A stretch of DNA of 64,000 nucleotides from Candidatus Bathyarchaeota archaeon (lineage in GTDB: Archaea > Thermoproteota > Bathyarchaeia > Bathyarchaeales > Bathycorpusculaceae), in the NCBI GenBank assembly GCA_963828195.1, contig CAWHDT010000003.1, positions 32,001-96,000 of the forward strand, written 5' to 3'. How positions within the stretch are numbered: the first letter of the stretch is position 1; every line of letters begins with the position of its first letter. A program made the translations under genes and the position numbers. Below the pieces are notes generated by a model. It ran no database searches. It saw nothing but the letters and a program-made list of their open reading frames with translations, and was not told the DNA's origin. Below, piece after piece: positions 2,595-41,533 of the stretch.

Positions 2595-3941
2595 TCACGC
2601 GTACCTTTCCTGCTGCGCCAACGGGTTGGTCCATTTAATTATTGCGCTAACTGAGTTCTGGTTAAACCCCTTAAACCCTTGCCCCCTCTCAATATTCTCC
2701 AAGTGGCTGGCAACGGCGCCGTCCCGAGAAAAAGTTGAGGCTTGATCCTCGTTTAGTTGATGATTTTTCACCAACTGAGCTAACTTGTCTTCTTTCACCT
2801 GCCACTTCTCAGGTTCCGTGAATGCTTGCTTCAGAAAGGGGAAATTTGAGAAAGGCTTCATCATTCCGACGCCTGCACTTTTGAGGTCTTCTTGAACGCT
2901 GTCGAAACGAAATTTAGCGGCTAAATGATGCATGCCTGCTTCAAGAATGCTTTCGCCATGCAGACCAACCCATAAGCCAACTGTGCCAAGCTTTTCCTGC
3001 GGCTTGAGCCCTTGATGCGCGAAGTCAACGTCTTTTTCTTCCCTAGACAAATCTACGTCTGCAAAAACAACGTTTCTTCCATCTGTGTCTTCCAAGATTT
3101 GGGCACCCCAACCTGCCTGGGCTCCAGCGTGGAATCTTTCCCGCGGGTTTAAGCCTAAGTGCTCAAAAATTCTGATGAGGGAAACAAAGTTCTGCCTTGA
3201 AGACCTAAAGGTGTGGTGGTCAACGTTGCCCCAGCCCCCTCCGACTTGATCCTGCCTTCTCTTTTGAACCGTGGCCGCATGGTTTCTGCTCTCCCAATAG
3301 CGTCTTTCTGCTCGGAAGAACGCGTCGGCTAATCTCTTCTTGCTAATTTTGGTGCCCAAGGATGCGAGGAGCTTTTCTGTCTCCAACAAGCCTTCTTCAC
3401 CTGAAGCAAATGTTCTTTGTCGAGAACCTAAAGCTCCAGATGCCTCAATGTACGAATCAACATCGTCGCTATCCTCAACACAGTACCCTGAAGAGCCGCG
3501 CCTCTCAACAGCCGAAAACAAAAAGTCGCCTTCGCCCGTCAGCATCAATTTTCTGAAAGCCGCGTTAGGTTCCCCCTGAATGTTTTTTTCTTCGGCAAAG
3601 ACTTTGCGAAAGTCATCGATGTCTTCCACGCCAAATGCAAGCTCCAAAGCCTTGCCTTTTTTTAAAAGCATCGGGAACAATACGCTGCCTTCAACTCGAA
3701 AAACAGATGAGCCATCGGTTAATTTTGATTCTTGAAAACCCATTTTAAAAAGGTCATCCACATCCACTTGTTCCGATGGGACTGCTAGGTGGTCAACCCA
3801 ATCAAAAATTCTTGTCGAAGTCTGCTGCTTAATCTCATCAGCTAAGGTTGCCGCATAATTGTTCTTGCTTAAGAATTCGTCAAGTTTTGTCTGCAGGAAA
3901 GATTCTGCTTTTGGAAAAAGAGCCCAATCAAACTTGTTCAA
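2595..3941 (-). CDS. conserved hypothetical protein, possibly VOC/glyoxalase-like metalloenzyme
   Basis: 448 aa ORF; VDHL, DHHTFRSSR, GMHHLA, HLENIER (putative His/His/Glu metal ligands); in operon with the FAD oxidoreductase. Confidence 0.6.
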   Translation of the reverse strand: MNKFDWALFPKAESFLQTKLDEFLSKNNYAATLADEIKQQTSTRIFDWVDHLAVPSEQVDVDDLFKMGFQESKLTDGSSVFRVEGSVLFPMLLKKGKALELAFGVEDIDDFRKVFAEEKNIQGEPNAAFRKLMLTGEGDFLFSAVERRGSSGYCVEDSDDVDSYIEASGALGSRQRTFASGEEGLLETEKLLASLGTKISKKRLADAFFRAERRYWESRNHAATVQKRRQDQVGGGWGNVDHHTFRSSRQNFVSLIRIFEHLGLNPRERFHAGAQAGWGAQILEDTDGRNVVFADVDLSREEKDVDFAHQGLKPQEKLGTVGLWVGLHGESILEAGMHHLAAKFRFDSVQEDLKSAGVGMMKPFSNFPFLKQAFTEPEKWQVKEDKLAQLVKNHQLNEDQASTFSRDGAVASHLENIERGQGFKGFNQNSVSAIIKWTNPLAQQERYA

Positions 3942-4365: not shown

Positions 4366-4536
4366 ACCCGCTTTTCTCTTTTTTTGGCAATTAGCTCACC
4401 CGAATGGTAGGCTCTGCCCAGAAGTGAGCAAATCTTACTGCACATTTTTGAAAAAATATGGAGTATTTGTTGGCTGTAATGATGGAACGCGGATTTTCTT
4501 GCTGGAAGGGCTTGAGAAAAAATGTTTGTTCATTAC

Positions 4537-4579
4537 TGTAGTCACCTCACCATTAAAATTTAAATCTGTGTAGTCACCT
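4537..4579 (+). promoter_or_regulatory. direct repeat TGTAGTCACCT flanking the TATA box of the fic gene
   Basis: Identical 11-mers at 4537-4547 and 4569-4579 with TTTAAAT between them. Confidence 0.55.
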
Positions 4580-4588
4580 AATATATTT

Positions 4589-5530
4589 GTGCACGTCGAA
4601 ATTAGAGAAAAGAATGGTTCACGTAAATACTATTTAGCGCACTCTTATAGAGTCGGAAAATTCGTAAAAAAAGTTAGAGTTTACCTCGGCACAAACTTAA
4701 CTCACGAGGAATTAAAACAAAAAAGAAAAATGGCTGAAGCCAAACTTAAAGAACGGATAAAGCAAGCCGAATCAATCCATGACCCCTATTTAACACCGCT
4801 TTCGTCCTCAGAATCAAAAGAGCTTGAAACTCTTGAAGCGCGAGGGGAATTACGAGTACCTCGTCTCTCAGAACTTGACTGGGACAAGTTCAAGGAAGCA
4901 TTTACCTATAATACAAACGCTATTGAAGGTTCACGGGTTAAATCTAATGAAGTTGCAGACATTCTTAGAAAGAGAAAATGGCCACCAAACGTAAGCAAAG
5001 AGGATATTGCGGAAACCTATGGAGTCGCTGAAGCAGTGGACTACATTCGTAAAACCAAAGAATGCGTTTCCTTGAGACTTATAAAACAACTTCACAAAAT
5101 AGTTTTTAAGAATTCAAAGCATTTTGCAGGGGAATTTAGAGAAAAAGGTGTGGAAGTAATAGTTGCTGACTCATATGGAAATGTTATTCACCGTGGAGCA
5201 CCATCGTGGCAAATTGAGGAACTGCTAAAAGATTTGGTTCGGTGGTATAATCGGAATAAGGAAATGTGTCCTTCGCTGGTTTTAGCCGCCGTTGTTCATA
5301 ATCAATTCGAAAACATTCATCCATTCCAAGATGGAAACGGCAGGGTTGGAAGATTGCTCCTTAACAATATCCTGTTAAAGCATGATCTTCCGCCTTTAAA
5401 CATTGAACTAAAAAATAGAGCGCAGTATTATGAGGCTTTACAAATCTATGAAAAAGACCACAACATACGTCCCACTATAGATTTAATGCTTAAAGAATAC
5501 AGGGCACTTAAGAAGATCTTACATAGGTGA
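4589..5530 (+). CDS. Fic family protein (AMPylase-type)
   Basis: Canonical HPFQDGNGRVGR motif; TNAIEG motif. Confidence 0.92.
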   Translation: MHVEIREKNGSRKYYLAHSYRVGKFVKKVRVYLGTNLTHEELKQKRKMAEAKLKERIKQAESIHDPYLTPLSSSESKELETLEARGELRVPRLSELDWDKFKEAFTYNTNAIEGSRVKSNEVADILRKRKWPPNVSKEDIAETYGVAEAVDYIRKTKECVSLRLIKQLHKIVFKNSKHFAGEFREKGVEVIVADSYGNVIHRGAPSWQIEELLKDLVRWYNRNKEMCPSLVLAAVVHNQFENIHPFQDGNGRVGRLLLNNILLKHDLPPLNIELKNRAQYYEALQIYEKDHNIRPTIDLMLKEYRALKKILHR

Positions 5531-5575
5531 CCACAAATTTCGCATGCGTAGTCACCTCTAATACGATTTGGTTTT

Positions 5576-5620
5576 TGGCGCGGGATGTTAGGTTTACACC
5601 CACGTTTAAATCCACACGAA
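5576..5620 (-). repeat. tRNA-Ser 3'-end-derived site A (att-like) plus arm motif
   Basis: TGGCGCGGGATGT is identical to 9936-9948; CACGTTTAAATCCACACGAA at +25. Confidence 0.8.
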
Positions 5621-5750
5621 AAATTTAGGAAGAAAAACGCAATACGCTGTTGTTCTGAACTCAAAAAAGCTCAAAGAAGTTAAATAGAAAGAAAAAAAGA
5701 ATTTTGAATTCGTAGTTTCCCTTTGTCGTTGTCTAAAAGATGGGTGCGGT

Positions 5751-6188
5751 TTACCCGAATGTTACGTATTTTTTGGGCTCCATCATGTTAGCTCTGCTCC
5801 AGTGGTGAGCCTGGCATTTTGCTACCTTCATGATGACCAACTCGGGGCTTTCTGCCGTTATGCCCATTTGCTTGAGGAAGGGCCGCGCTTCTATCACTTT
5901 CCGCTTCATCTCCAGATCTTGCACAAACTCCACCTTGCCCGTGACCCGCACCATGTCTCCGCTTTTGCTTTTGTAGTCGAGGAAGCAGACTTCTACTTTG
6001 GGATTGGCTTTAAGCTGCTTATAGACATCTTTGCTCGCATCCATGCTGTAGTAGAGTCCGGTTTTGTCGGCGGAGAAAAGCTGCAGCGCACGCACTTTCG
6101 GCTGGTCGCCATCTAAGGTGGCGAAGAAGCTGATTGGGTTGTCGGTTACAAACTTGAGAATTTCGTTCAATTCCATAATTATCGCCAA
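5751..6188 (-). CDS. pyridoxamine 5'-phosphate oxidase-like (split beta-barrel flavin-binding) protein
   Basis: FFATLDGDQPKVR, KDVYKQLKANPKVEVCF, VRVTGKVEF. Confidence 0.88.
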   Translation of the reverse strand: MAIIMELNEILKFVTDNPISFFATLDGDQPKVRALQLFSADKTGLYYSMDASKDVYKQLKANPKVEVCFLDYKSKSGDMVRVTGKVEFVQDLEMKRKVIEARPFLKQMGITAESPELVIMKVAKCQAHHWSRANMMEPKKYVTFG

Positions 6189-6367
6189 GCAGTAAGAGTG
6201 GCGACGACGATTATAGGCTTTTCCTAAGCAGGCGAGCGGCGGTTTGGCAGTTTGTAGAGCCTCGCGAGACTTAACGCCGGTGTGGTTAGGATGAATTTGG
6301 ATTAACCCGAATTACCTTACTTGCTTTCTATATAGTAAGCGGCTCACAAATTAACGGAATTTGGAAA

Positions 6368-6412
6368 TGGGCGGGATGTCAAATTTTGCATTCACTTTCA
6401 AATTTCACGCAG
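6368..6412 (-). repeat. tRNA-Ser 3'-end-derived site B plus arm motif
   Basis: GAATTTGGAAATGG-GCGGGATGT matches the tRNA end and its flank with a 1-nt deletion; CACTTTCAAATTTCACGC at +25. Confidence 0.75.
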
Positions 6413-6537
6413 GTAATAACCGTCTTTTTAAAAAGAATCAAGAGATGATAGGTTGCTGTCTTAAGCCAGCCACAAATGTTTATTTTTCGCTCCCTCTTTG
6501 AGAAATGGCGGAGTAAAAGTTATGTCATTAAATGTGA

Positions 6538-7041
6538 ATGGGCAAAGAGTACACTCCCTGGAAGATTCCTATGTCAGAACAAGCGGCATCTAAGGAAGAA
6601 GCCCTGAAAGAACCGGTGCGGCCTCATCAGCCGGGCCAGTCGACGTTCCGAGCGATCCTCGCCGAAGGCGTTGAGTGGAAACCGTTCGCGGCGTTTCCGC
6701 CGGAAGCACGCTTGGCGGTTCTGGTTGGCCGACCCTTGGAGCCCGGACCTTATACCATCAGGGTAAAGGTGCCTAACGGGGTGAAACTGATGCCTCACTG
6801 GCATCCTGAGGACCGCGTTTACACGGTCATTTCCGGGGTCTTCTACATCGGCTTAGGCGATAAATTCGACGCCGATAAGCTAGAGGCATATCCACCCGGC
6901 GCTGTAATTATTCTTCCCGGCAACACTTCCCACTTTCACTGGGCAAAGTCCGGCGAATACGTCACGCAGGTAACCGCCATAGGGCCACTCGGTCTGGAAT
7001 ATGTCGACTCGAAGGACGATCCGCGGAATGTTCCCCGTTAA
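6538..7041 (+). CDS. cupin domain protein
   Basis: PHWHPEDRVYTVISG and PGNTSHFHW cupin motifs; visibly GC-richer than neighbours; start may be 6571. Confidence 0.88.
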   Translation: MGKEYTPWKIPMSEQAASKEEALKEPVRPHQPGQSTFRAILAEGVEWKPFAAFPPEARLAVLVGRPLEPGPYTIRVKVPNGVKLMPHWHPEDRVYTVISGVFYIGLGDKFDADKLEAYPPGAVIILPGNTSHFHWAKSGEYVTQVTAIGPLGLEYVDSKDDPRNVPR

Positions 7042-7076
7042 TACGCGCGCTGGTTTGCCCTAAAAATCACTAATAT

Positions 7077-7508
7077 TTATGTTTGGGTTGGAGTTGCGCG
7101 TACCGCGTCTAATTTCTTCCTTCCGAAGACTAAAGCCCCTAAAAAGAGTAAGCCGAAACCTACAACGAAAGCTATGACAACGTTCGCACCTAACGAACCA
7201 CCAGAGCCTTCAGAAAAACCATAGCCACCAGAAAGAAGATCAAGAACTGACCCGAATACAAGAAAAGTTAGTCCTAAATAAGCCATAAACCTGCCAATCT
7301 TCATCTTCTCGGTGAGCATTATTGGTGTTTTTCTGCGTTTGAAGCCTGAGATACCAAAATAAGCCATAGACATTCCCATCGATGATACCACAGCGCCCAG
7401 AATTGGAATTGTGCTAATGAGAAAGACAAGATAGATACCGAATCCTAAAATAAGTAATCCAGCCAATCGGACAGCTAGATCTGAATTTCTTATTGGATTC
7501 ACAGACAT
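7077..7508 (-). CDS. hypothetical membrane protein (about 4 TM)
   Basis: Four hydrophobic segments. Confidence 0.65.
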   Translation of the reverse strand: MSVNPIRNSDLAVRLAGLLILGFGIYLVFLISTIPILGAVVSSMGMSMAYFGISGFKRRKTPIMLTEKMKIGRFMAYLGLTFLVFGSVLDLLSGGYGFSEGSGGSLGANVVIAFVVGFGLLFLGALVFGRKKLDAVRATPTQT

Positions 7509-7769
7509 GTAATGGATCCTTTACTATTTCAATTCCTATGGCTTTATGTTTTTTCTCTATTAATATTTTAGGGACAAAGCGGCGCCCTAAACCCCTTTTA
7601 CAATTTAGGGCGTGAGTGGGGGATCCCATCACTAGTTCACGAGTAAAAGTATGCACTGAAGGGCGCGAAATAAGTGCTGTCCTTGAACGCATATAGACTA
7701 AACCTAAAGCGCTCATAGAATGGCTTGAGCGCTTAGCGGTTTAAGACTTCTCATACCGTCGTGTTAAAC

Positions 7770-8156
7770 TCAGGGCTTCATCAAGGTAACGTGAATAGGT
7801 TCTATTCTCAAAATGACCCTATCTCCGTGCTGTCTGTAATCCATGCCTATGTACTTATGCGCTAACTTATCGATATGTTCCTCAGCGCCTTCTTTTCTTA
7901 TCTCAACAACCTTGCCCCTAATGAAAAGCGAATCGTACGGGTCGTTCATGTTGAATACGCTTATCGCCACACGAGGATCCCGCCTAATATTCCTTGTCTT
8001 GACCCTGTTCTCAGTCGTATTAATCAGTACGACGTCGCCGTCGTGGTCTACCCAAGTGGTCGTTACGTGCGGGGAACCATCCCTCATCAATGTGCCTATG
8101 TTTGCGAAATTTTTTGCCTCAATCAATTGCTTCGCTTTTTCAGGAAGGTTTACCAT
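7770..8156 (-). CDS. PPOX class F420-dependent oxidoreductase family protein
   Basis: GTLMRDGSPHVTTTWVD, KTRNIRRDPRVAISV, HIDKLAHKY. Confidence 0.88.
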   Translation of the reverse strand: MVNLPEKAKQLIEAKNFANIGTLMRDGSPHVTTTWVDHDGDVVLINTTENRVKTRNIRRDPRVAISVFNMNDPYDSLFIRGKVVEIRKEGAEEHIDKLAHKYIGMDYRQHGDRVILRIEPIHVTLMKP

Positions 8157-8386
8157 GCAGCCACCATTTACTAAGACGGATGGAACGAAGATTAATAGTT
8201 TTCTTGGCAGCGCGTCGTGAAATGCCGTATGGCAAGTGGGGCGGGGGCGAACGCTGATTTGTGTGCAACTTAAACGCTGAATTAAATTGGATTGCCTAAA
8301 CGGTTGAAACGCAAATTAGAAGCCAACAACTCATGGTTCATTTTTAGAAATAAATGAATGTTAAGCCTTATTTGGCAAAAAGAGCT

Positions 8387-8430
8387 TGGCGCGGGATGTT
8401 GGATTTGAACCCACGCGGCCTTTCGACCAC
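8387..8430 (-). repeat. 44-bp copy of tRNA-Ser 3' half (site C, attR-like)
   Basis: 43/44 identical to 9936-9979; weak similarity continues to about 8448. Confidence 0.92.
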
Positions 8431-8521
8431 CTCAGACTTTCTGACCTGTAGAATCGCGGGCATCTTTGTAACAATATTTTTTAATGTTTTTTGACAATTG
8501 TTAAATACGGCTCTATGATAT

Positions 8522-8749
8522 TTGGGTTTGATGGATATGACGTCTGAAGCAGAGTTGAAAGAGATTCGAAGTCTGCTTGTGGAACTGAACAAAAAAGTGC
8601 AAGGGCTCAATGAGTTGGTGGAAGAGAGGCTAATAGGCTGTGAGGTGCCCACCAAAGAGGATGTTGAAGCCATAAACGAGTATGAAGCTTCAAAGAAAAG
8701 CAAAAAACTCCACGTTGAGCCTCTAAGCGAACTATCAAAAGGGAATTAG
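8522..8749 (+). CDS. putative antitoxin
   Basis: Small acidic protein (PTKEDVEAINEYE...PLSEL) 3 bp upstream of relE; start uncertain (8537 possible). Confidence 0.7.
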   Translation: MGLMDMTSEAELKEIRSLLVELNKKVQGLNELVEERLIGCEVPTKEDVEAINEYEASKKSKKLHVEPLSELSKGN

Positions 8750-8752
8750 CTG

Positions 8753-9019
8753 TTGCCTAAGCATCTGGTTTTTGTAGAAAGCAAAGCCAAAAAACAATTC
8801 AAGAAGTTGCCCAAAGAAAACCAAACAAGGGTTCTTGCAGCTCTGAAAACCTTGGAAGACGAAGGCTTTTCTGCAAGGTTAGACCTCAAGAAGCTGCAAG
8901 GGTATAGAAGCCATTACCGTATAAGAGCGGGCAGAATTATACGAATAAGGTTTGAGCTTTCGGCAGACGGAACAATTGTTGTTTACTCTATTTCAATGCG
9001 CGAAAATGCATACGAATAG
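8753..9019 (+). CDS. RelE/ParE family toxin
   Basis: AKKQFKKL, DLKKLQGY, YRIRAG, RENAY. Confidence 0.85.
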   Translation: MPKHLVFVESKAKKQFKKLPKENQTRVLAALKTLEDEGFSARLDLKKLQGYRSHYRIRAGRIIRIRFELSADGTIVVYSISMRENAYE

Positions 9020-9085
9020 GCGCTGACAAAACCAAGGTTTTTAAGCAATTTCTTTCAGCAGACCGTAGTTGCAAGGAGGTTTAAG

Positions 9086-9131
9086 TGGCGCGGGATGTCA
9101 GTTTTACATTCACGTTTAAATTTCACGCGAA
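9086..9131 (-). repeat. tRNA-Ser 3'-end-derived site D plus arm motif
   Basis: TGGCGCGGGATGT exact; CACGTTTAAATTTCACGCGAA at +25. Confidence 0.8.
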
Positions 9132-9226
9132 GCGCCGTGAATGCCGGAATAAGTGAATAAAGTATAAAACCAATATGTTCAAATCGCCAAAACTGTTAAG
9201 ATCCCATTTCGTATGGTTTGTTTGAT

Positions 9227-9688
9227 CTATTTGCTTAGTCCTAGCTGTTGCATGAATCCAACAAAGTCATAAAATAGTCTTTCTTCGACGATTTCGCCGT
9301 TCTTCCAGGTGGCTACGGTGCAGAATTCAAGCTTAGCTGTCTTTCCGGTTGGTTGGATGATCTTTCCGTCTGCGCTTTTCATGGGTCCTTTCATCGTTAC
9401 TGTCCAGTCGGCGACTGTGCATGTGTGGTCTCCATCTCCAAATGCGATCTTGTAGGGGTTATTGACTATTTTGTTGTCGAAAGTTTTGAAGAACTCTGTA
9501 GCTTCGACATCGTGGTTGTGCCTTCCTATCGTGGGAAGGGGTTGCGCTGGCCAGTAAACCTTAACGTCTTCTCTGTGACGTTTCTTAAACGTCTCCCAGA
9601 GGGGGCTGTTTGGACCTGCGTTCCAGGCGTCATCAAGGGTTTTCATCAACTCGAGATTTTCTTTTGATCCCATCTTGCATTCACCCAA
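9227..9688 (-). CDS. SnoaL-like ester cyclase (NTF2 fold)
   Basis: DDAWN, IQPTGK, FCTVATWKNGEIVEERLFYD...QQLGL; start probably 9673. Confidence 0.85.
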   Translation of the reverse strand: MGECKMGSKENLELMKTLDDAWNAGPNSPLWETFKKRHREDVKVYWPAQPLPTIGRHNHDVEATEFFKTFDNKIVNNPYKIAFGDGDHTCTVADWTVTMKGPMKSADGKIIQPTGKTAKLEFCTVATWKNGEIVEERLFYDFVGFMQQLGLSK

Positions 9689-9828
9689 ATTATCCTGTTA
9701 AAAATCTCTGTGTCTAGATTCTGCATTGTTTCGCTTAAAAGCCTTGCGTGAGCTTCTCTGGTTGTTTAAAACGCGAATGTGTTCCAGTGCAATTGTCTTT
9801 CAGGAGCTTCTTCTTGAAGCGGGATTTA

Positions 9829-9847
9829 TTCGCGTGTAATTTAAACG
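9829..9847 (-). repeat. inverted copy of the 19-bp arm motif
   Basis: Reverse complement CGTTTAAATTACACGCGAA is 18/19 identical to 9113-9131; another inverted copy (15/19) at 8258-8276. Confidence 0.75.
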
Positions 9848-9874
9848 CTTGACCTGAGGAGGTAAATCTCAATT

Positions 9875-10315
9875 TCATGCGATAATTTGAGTATAATCAT
9901 TAAAAATAGGTTCAGAAATAGGCTGAATTTGGAAATGGCGCGGGATGTGGGATTTGAACCCACGCGGCCTTTCGACCACAGACTTAGCAGGCCTGCCCCC
10001 TACCAGGCTAGGGCAATCCCGCACGAAACTGTTTTGTTGTTCCAAGCCTGATTTAGACATATTAAGATGTTCAATTTGAACACCTAAGTGGTCGGTCTCA
10101 GCCATCTCAGTATGAGGTAATTTAATTAAAGTTTTCTGAACATTTAAACCACAGCCTTTGCTTAGCTGCAGTTCTGCGTATTCCTTAGACTGTTGATGAT
10201 AGAAGAATTTGCTTTTACCATACTCAGCTTTGCCTGCATAATGCCTAACTCTGTAGTAGTTGCCTAATTGCTGAAGATAACCTTCTCGCTTACATACTTC
10301 ACATATTATTCTCAT
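9875..10315 (-). CDS. Zn-finger-like ORF reading through tRNA-Ser; candidate split-integrase N-terminal fragment
   Basis: MRIICEVC...YYRVRHY...YHQQ; TTTATA upstream; frame stays open across the whole tRNA. The integrase link is inference. Confidence 0.5.
   Translation of the reverse strand: MRIICEVCKREGYLQQLGNYYRVRHYAGKAEYGKSKFFYHQQSKEYAELQLSKGCGLNVQKTLIKLPHTEMAETDHLGVQIEHLNMSKSGLEQQNSFVRDCPSLVGGRPAKSVVERPRGFKSHIPRHFQIQPISEPIFNDYTQIIA
9936..10022 (-). tRNA. tRNA-Ser(GCT), CCA encoded
   Basis: GCGGGAT/ATCCCGC acceptor stem, CAGGC-CTGCTAA-GTCTG anticodon arm, long variable arm, GGTTCAAATCC T-loop, G73, CCA. Confidence 0.96.
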
Positions 10316-10437
10316 TTTATCACATTCTAGGTTTTGGTCTTCTGGGGTGGTCAACTTTGGATATAAAGACCATTAAAACAAAAATAGGGAGCGTTAAGCA
10401 AAGATATTATATTCAAAATAAACTATGAAGCATTGTT

Positions 10438-10779
10438 GTGGGAGCAATGTTAAGAGACATTAAACTAATGCTTGTGGCTAATGCATTCTTAAGTTTGCTT
10501 TTTGTTTATACTAACTACTTCATTTGGGCAGGTTTCAACATAAGCCCCAAAGGCTACATTAATTTATTAACCTATGGACCTGGCATAATTGGTTATCACT
10601 TATATTTTCTTGTCAATGGTCAGATGGAAGGTTTTAATGGAGCATATTTTGTTACGTTTAACTTTCCTTTCTGGCTCTTCTTTCTGGCAATAGCAGTAAA
10701 CATGTACTTCATCTTTAGACTCCAAAGAAGCATCGAAGGAAAACAGCATTCTGAGTGGGGAGCCCCTCTGCCACCTTGA
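10438..10779 (+). CDS. hypothetical membrane protein
   Basis: 2-3 hydrophobic segments in AT-rich DNA. Confidence 0.6.
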   Translation: MGAMLRDIKLMLVANAFLSLLFVYTNYFIWAGFNISPKGYINLLTYGPGIIGYHLYFLVNGQMEGFNGAYFVTFNFPFWLFFLAIAVNMYFIFRLQRSIEGKQHSEWGAPLPP

Positions 10780-40252: not shown

Positions 40253-41533
40253 TTGATTCTCGACGACATACCGCAAGTTGTTTACGCACCTGCAAAAGCA
40301 TTCAAGAAAATAATTGAAAACCCCAAATACTTGGGTGCAATAGTAATTCTGGTTCTTTTCATAGGCTTACAGATTGCTTATAGCTATTCACAGTTCTCAA
40401 GCACTTACACAGAAAACACGTCCCCGTCAATTACTAATTTATCAAATTACGTCAATGCGACGGCGACCTCATCAGGGTTGCCGCTTTGGAACTCCATCTC
40501 CGGCGCATCTTTCAGCAACAACAATGTTGACTTCTACAACTACACCATTTACGTCCCCGCGATTGCGGAAAACTATACTTTGTTTGGCAACAGCAGCTTA
40601 GAAATCGACGCTGCAAACGCCACAGACGTTTCAGCTACATTAAGCAACGCTTTCGACGTGAACTGCGGCGCCGGCGGCTTTGAAAACCTTTCAATGGCGC
40701 TTCAACTGGTTGAGCCGCAGGCTGTGCCTCAAAGCGCAGCTTTAACACTTTACTCAGTTAATGCTTCAAACTACTACACATACGATTTGACTTCTTCACT
40801 GTCAAATCCCTCAGACATTAACCAGTGGAATAACCTAACGCTTCCAGTGGGTTCATCCGCGCAGGGCTGGACGCCCACAGGGAATCCTTCCTGGGGCAAC
40901 ATAACATCACTAATGTTAAACTTCAATTACCCATCCGCCACAAACGTAACCATCCTCATCGGCACCTTGTTCTTCCACGGTCAATACCAAACATTTAACC
41001 AAGCCTTCGGACCTACACCGCTAATCTCATTTTTAGAAGCGTACTCTTTGCAGTTCATTTTCAGTTGGTTCCTGTTAACAGCGTTGCTTTACATTTTCTT
41101 CAAAGCACTCAAAGCCAACATAACTTGGAAACCGATTTTCATCTCTACAGCTTTTGCATTATTCGTGATGGTTGTTCGATCCGTAGTAAATCTTATCGCG
41201 ACATTTACCTTGCCGGCAGTTTATTACCCCTACGATTTGTCGCTTGGAGTAACCTCGAACGTTTTTGGCGCGGTATCTGTTCCCTCAGCGGCGGCAACCA
41301 CCTATTCAGCGCAAACGCAAGCAATCCTCAGCCACATCACATCTCTGACTTCAACTTTCAACGGAATAATAGAAGTGATGTTTCTGGTTTCATACATTTG
41401 GTTAGGTGTCCTCTGCACAATAATTGTTGGAACACTCAAACCCGAGTTCTCAATGATGAAGCGCATAACCATTGCAGCGGTAAGCGTCGCAGTCACCCTG
41501 CTACTCCTACTACTATTCGTGGGCCTAGTGTAA
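40253..41533 (+). CDS. Yip1-like membrane protein with large extracellular domain
   Basis: VVYAPAKAFKKI N-terminus, glycosylation-sequon-rich loop, multiple C-terminal TMs. Confidence 0.7.
   Translation: MILDDIPQVVYAPAKAFKKIIENPKYLGAIVILVLFIGLQIAYSYSQFSSTYTENTSPSITNLSNYVNATATSSGLPLWNSISGASFSNNNVDFYNYTIYVPAIAENYTLFGNSSLEIDAANATDVSATLSNAFDVNCGAGGFENLSMALQLVEPQAVPQSAALTLYSVNASNYYTYDLTSSLSNPSDINQWNNLTLPVGSSAQGWTPTGNPSWGNITSLMLNFNYPSATNVTILIGTLFFHGQYQTFNQAFGPTPLISFLEAYSLQFIFSWFLLTALLYIFFKALKANITWKPIFISTAFALFVMVVRSVVNLIATFTLPAVYYPYDLSLGVTSNVFGAVSVPSAAATTYSAQTQAILSHITSLTSTFNGIIEVMFLVSYIWLGVLCTIIVGTLKPEFSMMKRITIAAVSVAVTLLLLLLFVGLV

Follow-up and report, generated by a model that had tools for sequence, protein, structure and literature searches.

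We analysed a 64,000-nucleotide stretch of the genome of an uncultured Candidatus Bathyarchaeota archaeon from soil (GenBank assembly GCA_963828195.1, contig CAWHDT010000003.1, positions 32,001 to 96,000; hereafter the window), in which an array of small gene-bearing units lies downstream of the gene for tRNA-Ser(GCT) (Table 1). A preliminary description of this DNA had proposed that minimal non-autonomous cassettes are inserted serially at the tRNA by a trans-acting integrase, as an archaeal analogue of an integron. Read on the plus strand the 3′ end of the tRNA is the 13-mer TGGCGCGGGATGT, and a scan for this 13-mer in combination with alignments confirmed the recurrences on which the proposal was built. 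Exact copies start at 5576, 8387 and 9086 in addition to the one within the tRNA at 9936, a further copy at 6368 has one C missing, and the copy at 8387 extends to 44 nt with 98 % identity to the tRNA. These core copies divide the DNA into units of 792 (D), 2019 (C), 699 (B) and 850 bp (A). Direct repeats of the tRNA 3′ end border the units and the tRNA itself is restored, the arrangement by which integration at a tRNA gene is classically recognised.

The proposal also depended on the 13-mer being rare. A fifth match within the window, at 41266, contains two mismatches; shuffled sequences gave an expectation of 0.92 matches and five were reached in none of 100 shuffles. Across the 2.83 Mb assembly the 13-mer occurs five times when at most one mismatch is allowed, four times in the window and once at C5:348000 (contig and position), and is not common genome-wide. 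An Rfam search of the window returned tRNA only and no other family. The junctions at 9086, 6368 and 8387 are each bridged by independent Logan contigs, which are short, of low depth and derived from four public runs, one of which may be the source sample of the assembly.

Table 1. Coordinates of the tRNA gene, the array units and their junctions within the window
Feature	Position	Strand	Description
Fic block	4537-5531	+	Fic gene 4589-5530 (PF02661, 4.7e-20); outermost, separately exchangeable module; no conserved arm
Unit D	5576-6367		PNPOx-like gene 5751-6188 (-), 2.2e-13; type-1 right end ..GAATTTGGA at 6291-6299
Unit C	6368-8386		Cupin-like gene 6538-7041 (+), membrane ORF 7077-7508 (-), PPOX gene 7770-8156 (-)
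Unit B	8387-9085		Putative antitoxin 8522-8749 (+), RelE-like toxin 8753-9019 (+); no conserved arm
Unit A	9086-9935		SnoaL-like gene 9227-9688 (-), 1.4e-18; type-1 right end ..GAATTTGGAAA up to 9935
Distal junction	5576-5619	+	Core 5576-5588 and 31-nt arm; nhmmer E 1e-12
Junction D/C	6368-6412	+	Core 6368-6379, minus one base, and arm; E 1.2e-11
Unit B left end	8387-8430	+	Core and true tRNA-Ser 3′ fragment, 44 nt, 98 %
Junction B/A	9086-9131	+	Core 9086-9098 and arm; motif CGTTTAAATTTCACGCGAA at 9113-9131; E 7e-14
tRNA-Ser(GCT)	9936-10022	-	ARAGORN; Rfam tRNA 54.9 bits; intact attachment target, core is the last 13 nt
Int(N) remnant	10040-10354	-	N-terminal part of an SSV-type (suicidal) integrase, reads into tRNA-Ser(GCT); P0002 56 % identity over 76 % of query

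Domain searches agreed with most of the gene content first assigned to the array, namely a Fic gene past the last site and SnoaL-like, PNPOx-like, PPOX, cupin-like and membrane cargo in the units. The cupin-like match in unit C is weak and falls under the curated cut-offs, the membrane open reading frame (ORF) beside it has no family match, and the PPOX gene (1e-16) matches the F420-dependent class TIGR03618 with 96 bits. The reading of unit B as RelBE is less secure than first given: its toxin-like ORF resembles RelE weakly (Gp49/HigB-like, E 0.0026, below the cut-off; PDB RelE3 3bpq_B, E 1.5e-4 over residues 14-87) with no NCBIfam match, while the 75-aa ORF taken for RelB matches no family and is labelled an antitoxin because of its position only. 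Base composition and the orientation of the cargo both vary as originally noticed, with genes on the minus strand in A and D, on the plus strand in B and on both strands in C, and with G+C ranging from 0.37 to 0.585 in 400-nt windows. No recombinase or replication domain was found in any unit by domain searches of the window ORFs from 4589 to 10779, again in keeping with the preliminary description.

Units A, C and D share conserved ends. The cores at 5576, 6368 and 9086 each adjoin, on their right, a conserved arm of approximately 31 nt (..CACGTTTAAATTTCACGCG; ..TTTACATTCACGTTTAAATTTCACGCG) that aligns with the T-arm and variable-arm region of the tRNA, as a degenerate, A+T-rich copy within its last 44 nt. 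Core and arm together measure 44 nt, equal in length to the true tRNA fragment at 8387-8430, and the attachment site of Sulfolobus spindle-shaped virus 1 (SSV1) is of matching length at approximately 44 nt. The tRNA-proximal end of these units is formed by a module of 100-125 nt, which occurs in two types and carries an inverted copy of the arm motif CGTTTAAAT. Type 1 (..GAATTTGGAAA) closes units A and D, and type 2 (..TATTTnnnnAAATA..AAGCTCTAATTGGCAAAAGGAGC) closes unit C. The inverted motif of unit A at 9829-9847 is 19 nt long, 95 % complementary to 9113-9131 and 104 nt from the junction, and that of unit C at 8257-8278 lies 126 nt from the junction; the motif copies are found 12-14 nt from one terminus and 88-126 nt from the other. 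Unit D closes with an additional 63-67 nt (6300-6367) that appear to be left over from another right-end module, and 6341-6370 resembles 9909-9938. Units A, C and D form a conserved family in which the typical cassette consists of cargo, from no gene to a few, between the halves of a single attP-like site. The units are not uniform: unit B has a plain tRNA fragment in place of the arm, the Fic block has neither, and both are other module kinds situated in the same hot spot.

Other roles for the end modules were also considered. Their derivation from within an integrase reading frame was rejected, as only very short frames cross the arm or the right-end modules. A promoter function could draw on the TATA-like TTTAAAT in the arm, yet the orientation of the cargo does not suit a single direction. 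An attC-like hairpin was not supported at the two natural junctions folded as DNA (L041:3855-4035, z -0.66; L034:2135-2315, z -1.10; L numbers denote loci and G numbers genomes), and in neither fold are the two motif copies paired together.

Comparison with related genomes, three of which have flanks in common with the window, pointed to unit exchange at this tRNA. In G102 the homologues of the left-flank genes (1076-2560 and 2595-3941) are followed by three other ORFs in place of Fic, then by a core with arm, a PNPOx unit and a dissimilar unit of three genes. G101 has the tRNA and the right-flank genes; its array contains a single unrelated unit of 1.28 kb and, more distally, the Fic block, which in this genome (L049) shares 78.6 % nucleotide identity with the window over 1000 nt, from 4537 to 5531. 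Two genomes of the same genus were also compared. The G016 array comprises a unit of 5.2 kb (PAP2, hydrolase, Ldh_2, FGGY kinase), a Fic unit that includes a tRNA fragment, and an arm with ABC transporter genes after it; in G081 the tRNA is accompanied by just one core, and the arm is missing. Unit D is homologous to a unit of G102 (L044) from the arm to the right end ..GAATTTGGA, with 92 % protein identity, and both of its neighbours differ between the two arrays; the window carries 63-67 nt extra past this right end.

The sharpest case is provided by L041 and L065, in which a 1.9 kb unit on one side and the tRNA together with the flank upstream of it on the other are approximately 90 % identical. 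L041 contains 358 extra bp exactly between the core and the tRNA body; this insert begins with an arm, ends with a second core and contains no gene. The event, be it a gain or a loss, was bounded by cores. L043 differs from L088 by an extra unit of approximately 760 bp. In an all-versus-all comparison of arm loci many blocks of 90-100 % identity break off no more than some tens of bases from a core, with both sequences continuing beyond. Relatives accordingly differ in cassette content with breakpoints at cores, as the initial proposal had predicted (G102, G101, L044, L041/L065), and its minimal non-autonomous cassettes are supported by the unit turnover, the 358-bp indel and the PNPOx unit in two arrays, more widely than in the window itself.

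Patterns of this kind could also be produced if units were moved by homologous recombination between the repeated end modules without any dedicated recombinase. Repeats of 44 to approximately 125 nt within arrays could supply the homology, internal indels and swaps bounded by end modules would appear alike, and module exchange among tandem-integrated elements is mentioned in a review (PMC8371274). A unit and the tRNA however share just the 11-14 nt core and a degenerate likeness to the T-arm, and yet the 358-bp indel is located there. Homologous recombination would furthermore leave unexplained both the constancy of the arm beside different tRNA cores and across genera and the fixed spacing of the motif copies, and we consider it an improbable account of the array.

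Certain cargo genes were observed in other settings. The homologue of the unit A SnoaL-like gene in the sister genome G016 encodes a 90 % identical protein (L025, G016:C6, 16223-16673) outside any recognisable unit, and nucleotide homology ends at the coding sequence, which gives a hint of how units may acquire their cargo. In the arrays of G016, L041 and L043 a Fic gene immediately precedes a core, and in L049 one is located inside the array; among the ORFs scanned in the vicinity of arms, 3 of one set of 126 and 5 of another of 125 matched Fic families. Around the Fic gene of the window GTAGTCACCT is repeated at 4535-4547, 4567-4579 and 5545-5557, the two upstream copies flanking a TATA-like stretch and the downstream one sitting in a palindrome.

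We identified the arm at further cores within the same genome, at two sites on C1, one on C6 and one on C5 (nhmmer E up to 1.4e-8). On C1 one arm lies 1.1 kb downstream of tRNA-Leu(GAG), and a second, 13 kb further on, adjoins an inverted 54-nt tRNA-Leu fragment. The C6 arm is 0.6 kb downstream of an intron-bearing tRNA-Leu-like gene, to which the intron-aware mode of ARAGORN gives the label Met. At C5:141453-141489 (L013) an orphan arm, which ends after TTTAAAT, adjoins a perfect 3′ end of tRNA-Leu(GAG); the surroundings contain no tRNA gene, and the site may be the trace of a rearrangement. The C1 region (277135-290290, L011) encloses approximately 10.7 kb of housekeeping genes, including arginyl-tRNA synthetase, deoxyhypusine synthase, a deacetylase and an ABC transporter, between tRNA-Leu(GAG) with unit and arm on one side and an inverted arm, unit and 54-nt tRNA-Leu fragment on the other; it could have arisen through inversion between att-type sites.

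In a sample of 101 genomes from the GTDB family, a 26-mer of the arm (up to three mismatches) was present in four, including the genome studied here and representing three genera, and the reversed control gave none. The exact 20-mer was found in 18 stretches among 185,579 species genomes, where by our own arithmetic about two chance hits are expected, in 47 metagenome contigs and in no viral contig. Seventeen of the 18 stretches are titled Bathyarchaeia or Bathyarchaeota, which places the arm almost exclusively in Bathyarchaeia; the remaining one (L042) is titled Limnocylindrales bacterium, contains a tRNA-Ser(GCT) core with arm and is 99.9 % identical to two metagenome contigs. Its bacterial title is possibly a binning error. 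In total 85 arms were located in 69 of 70 sources, at least 35 of them beside a tRNA-Ser(GCT) core, and 14 sources contain two or more arms at spacings of 670-6200 bp. Of 25 tRNA-arm pairs within one locus, 22 show the expected orientation with the arm downstream of the tRNA; two of the exceptions are matches to the inverted motif copy and the third is the inverted C1 site. The core shares at least 9 nt with the end of its tRNA in 15 of those 22 pairs. The targets are mostly Ser(GCT), together with Ser(GGA)-like, Leu(GAG), other Leu and one tRNA read as Arg(CCT); tRNA-Val in L035 was rejected as a target, as the core does not match it. Most but not all of these targets are tRNAs with a long extra arm. 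The same review describes archaeal integrases as switching targets mainly within the long-extra-arm tRNAs for Ser and Leu (PMC8371274), and the bias seen here represents the same restriction.

A constant arm beside a core that changes with the tRNA is also what duplication of a target would give, and a transposase or casposase-like enzyme might insert units at tRNA 3′ ends while duplicating 11-13 nt of target. Casposons at tRNA 3′ ends with duplications of 14-15 bp are known, and the genome contains three Cas1 matches (C3:404718, C9:87786 and C5:11), all of them away from the window units. The termini of the units are not however inverted repeats of each other, given the asymmetric placement of the motif copies, and the arm aligns with the T-arm region of the tRNA itself in the manner of att sites. 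No transposase or Cas1 gene occurs in the arm loci among the Pfam families listed, and we regard insertion by such an enzyme as very unlikely.

On the 5′ side of tRNA-Ser(GCT), away from the array, lies the remnant of an SSV-type integrase. Its full-length relative P0002 (380 aa, PF16795) has a frame carrying the translated 5′ half of a tRNA-Gly, read by comparison with the translation of tRNA-Gly(TCC) on C1. No C-terminal integrase half was found in the assembly and no PF16795 match lies above the cut-off in the genome. A frameshifted paralogue of the remnant is located upstream of tRNA-Gly(TCC) at C1:38666-39009. The remnant marks a separate, older integration at the 5′ side of the tRNA; it identifies the tRNA as a repeated target and does not border the array.

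This remnant is one of several observations that could be read as signs of decay, with the units being former integrase-bearing elements which integrated serially at the tRNA and subsequently shed the greater part of their DNA, with neither a dedicated cassette family nor present mobility. Tandem integration followed by loss of the integrase gene is described for archaea (PMC8371274), unit B carries a plain 44-nt tRNA fragment, the cores beside some arms no longer match the tRNA, and many other tRNA 3′ fragments of 40-59 nt lie 0.7-1.5 kb downstream of tRNA genes in the same genome. Such a history would not however explain why unrelated cargo is enclosed by the same conserved ends in several genera, why a gene-less 358-bp unit forms a precise indel at a tRNA or why the PNPOx unit is found in two arrays with different neighbours. 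Among the 24 related and 47 metagenome loci no integrase fragments were found except in L069. We consider decay of this kind to be unlikely. Armless tRNA 3′ fragments of 34-59 nt (Asn, Ala twice, Cys and Thr) were located at C5:224005, C5:248969 and 249717, C5:398978, C9:109414, and C4:79592 and 81042; the C5 and C9 fragments are each found 0.7-1.5 kb downstream of the corresponding tRNA gene, indicating that small armless tRNA-bounded units are common in this genome.

The enzyme acting on these sites was sought both within the genome and near the arms. Five PF00589 matches are present in the genome, all away from arms, the nearest on the contig of the window being at C3:219797, approximately 178 kb from the tRNA. 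Searches by tblastn with these five integrases gave no match in the 24 related loci and a match in one of the 47 metagenome loci (L069). Pfam searches of 126 ORFs of at least 90 aa from 18 genome loci, and of 125 ORFs of 200-620 aa from the 47 metagenome loci, which contain 170 ORFs of 150 aa or more, revealed no recombinase or transposase among the 25 most-populated families listed, families matched by a single ORF standing outside this list with the exception of L069, placed first. The flanks of the best integrase contain no att-like repeats. Two candidates were set aside: the 470-508 aa integrase paralogs are diverged copies with no link to a tRNA, and an integrase in G105, although next to a tRNA with an arm, is part of a distinct island of 5.8 kb for which the 5′ part of that tRNA is used. 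This island (L048, G105:C18, 3575-9435) encodes a TIR-domain protein, an N6-adenine methyltransferase and a frameshifted PF00589 integrase and is bounded by a repeat of the tRNA 5′ part, the 3′ side of the same tRNA carrying a 1.19 kb arm unit.

Taken together these data favour the interpretation, to which we assign a probability of roughly 0.6, that the units are attP-only cassettes which are not autonomous and which tRNA 3′ ends acquire in series through a trans-acting recombinase, most likely a tyrosine integrase. In a circular unit the joined halves would form a site of approximately 150-170 bp with CGTTTAAAT-type motifs on both sides of the core, which would resemble the attP of heterobivalent tyrosine integrases with its arm-type sites. 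Recombination between this site and the identical 11-13 nt at the tRNA 3′ end would be carried out by an integrase whose gene lies elsewhere, and integration would restore the tRNA and push older units outward. Trapped archaeal elements can be excised by the integrase of an incoming element, according to the same review (PMC8371274).

Several observations weigh against capture by an integrase acting in trans. The data fit conservative recombination within an element-borne core and duplication of an 11-13 nt target, and cannot tell the two apart. The inverted motif stands at the expected distance in just 8 of 46 junctions, indicating that many units have incomplete or different right ends, and at three sites in the genome itself (C1, C6) the core beside the arm differs from the tRNA end, indicating that some copies are old or rearranged. 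Near arms an integrase is represented by one doubtful case in approximately 70 loci and none is tied to arms; the integrase of L069, 2.8 kb from an arm, has no recognisable second att site. The most plausible integrase family of this genome, a 440-aa zinc-ribbon family (C3:219647-220972), is present in 75 of 101 family genomes, which makes co-occurrence uninformative. Of three arm patterns searched for in viral contigs two gave no match, and the three matches to the third lack a core, as expected of chance. No circles, excision products, empty sites or core-to-core joints were seen in the short, low-depth contigs of the four runs, a result uninformative in either direction.

More tentatively, and with a confidence that falls somewhat short of even, we suggest that Bathyarchaeia possess a gene-cassette system of their own, in which attP-only units from 358 bp upward, usually with one to a few accessory genes, are captured by an integrase in trans at tRNAs, mainly those for Ser and Leu. 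This would constitute an independent counterpart of the integron that operates on double-strand sites. Bathyarchaeia, an abundant group in soil, peat and sediment, lack a genetic system, and the gain and loss of their accessory genes is poorly known; tiny enzyme-less units with defined ends at tRNA genes would explain part of the variability of their genomes. If correct, this interpretation would indicate how variable islands are built in an abundant uncultured archaeal class and would extend the idea of cassette capture beyond integrons. The units also offer a concrete case in which to consider how non-autonomous elements persist and how one arm pairs with different tRNA cores, and a minimal attachment module of approximately 150-170 bp with its tRNA target is a possible tool once the enzyme is found.

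The units resemble a number of known mobile systems in part. With classical tRNA-targeting integrative elements they share the repeats of the tRNA 3′ end, but they lack an integrase gene. Like non-autonomous cis-mobilizable elements they have att-like sites on both sides and no recombinase of their own. Among these, the cis-mobilizable elements of streptococci are integrase-less, att-flanked and subject to tandem accretion, and are thought to be moved by the integrase of a related element. They are regarded as decayed integrative conjugative or integrative mobilizable elements, whereas the units described here are conserved and minimal (down to 358 bp), with defined ends in several archaeal genera. 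Elements exploiting Xer/dif, together with the pdif modules of Acinetobacter plasmids, are likewise small, bounded by sites, arranged in tandem arrays and moved by a recombinase encoded elsewhere; their sites are dif-like rather than tRNA ends, and nothing at the loci studied here points to XerA. Casposons and other transposons have terminal inverted repeats at both ends and a Cas1 or transposase gene, neither of which was found in or beside the window units.

Tycheposons of Prochlorococcus (10.1101/2020.12.28.424599) similarly form variable islands anchored at tRNAs through repeated integration, with older elements pushed outward and partial tRNAs at the borders. They differ in encoding their own tyrosine or serine recombinase, often with replication genes, and in their size of approximately 10-20 kb, the present units having neither and measuring 0.36-5 kb. 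Gene capture in archaea through SSV-type suicidal integrases involves tRNA targets and elements which, lacking a working integrase, depend on that of another element (PMC8371274), and an Int(N) remnant of this family is found at tRNA-Ser(GCT). The units on the other hand are not bordered by Int(N) or Int(C), no long frame runs through the arm or right-end modules, and the tRNA separates the array from the Int(N) remnant, which lies on its 5′ side.

We found no description of the arm-bearing cassette family in the literature, with the reservation that supplementary tables beyond our reach, such as the one that covers archaeal integrons and integrase-less clusters of attC sites (CALINs) (PMC9668308), might list such loci. 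Integrons and CALINs, including the archaeal ones of Ghaly et al. (2022), share with the window array the small cassettes, the recombination module carried by each cassette, the absence of a recombinase inside the array, a putative toxin-antitoxin-like cassette and content that varies by whole cassettes between relatives (PMC9668308). They differ from it in their IntI and attI, both missing from the window array, and in the hairpin folding of their attC sites, which was not seen at the two junctions folded. The array is instead anchored at a tRNA 3′ end, carries cargo on both strands, so that no common promoter logic applies, and has units that may hold several genes. The comparison to an integron in the preliminary description thus holds for behaviour, and not for IntI, attC-like hairpins at the two junctions or a common orientation of the cassettes. 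The array behaves like an integron or like cis-mobilizable elements, while at the level of sequence it does not belong among the integrons.

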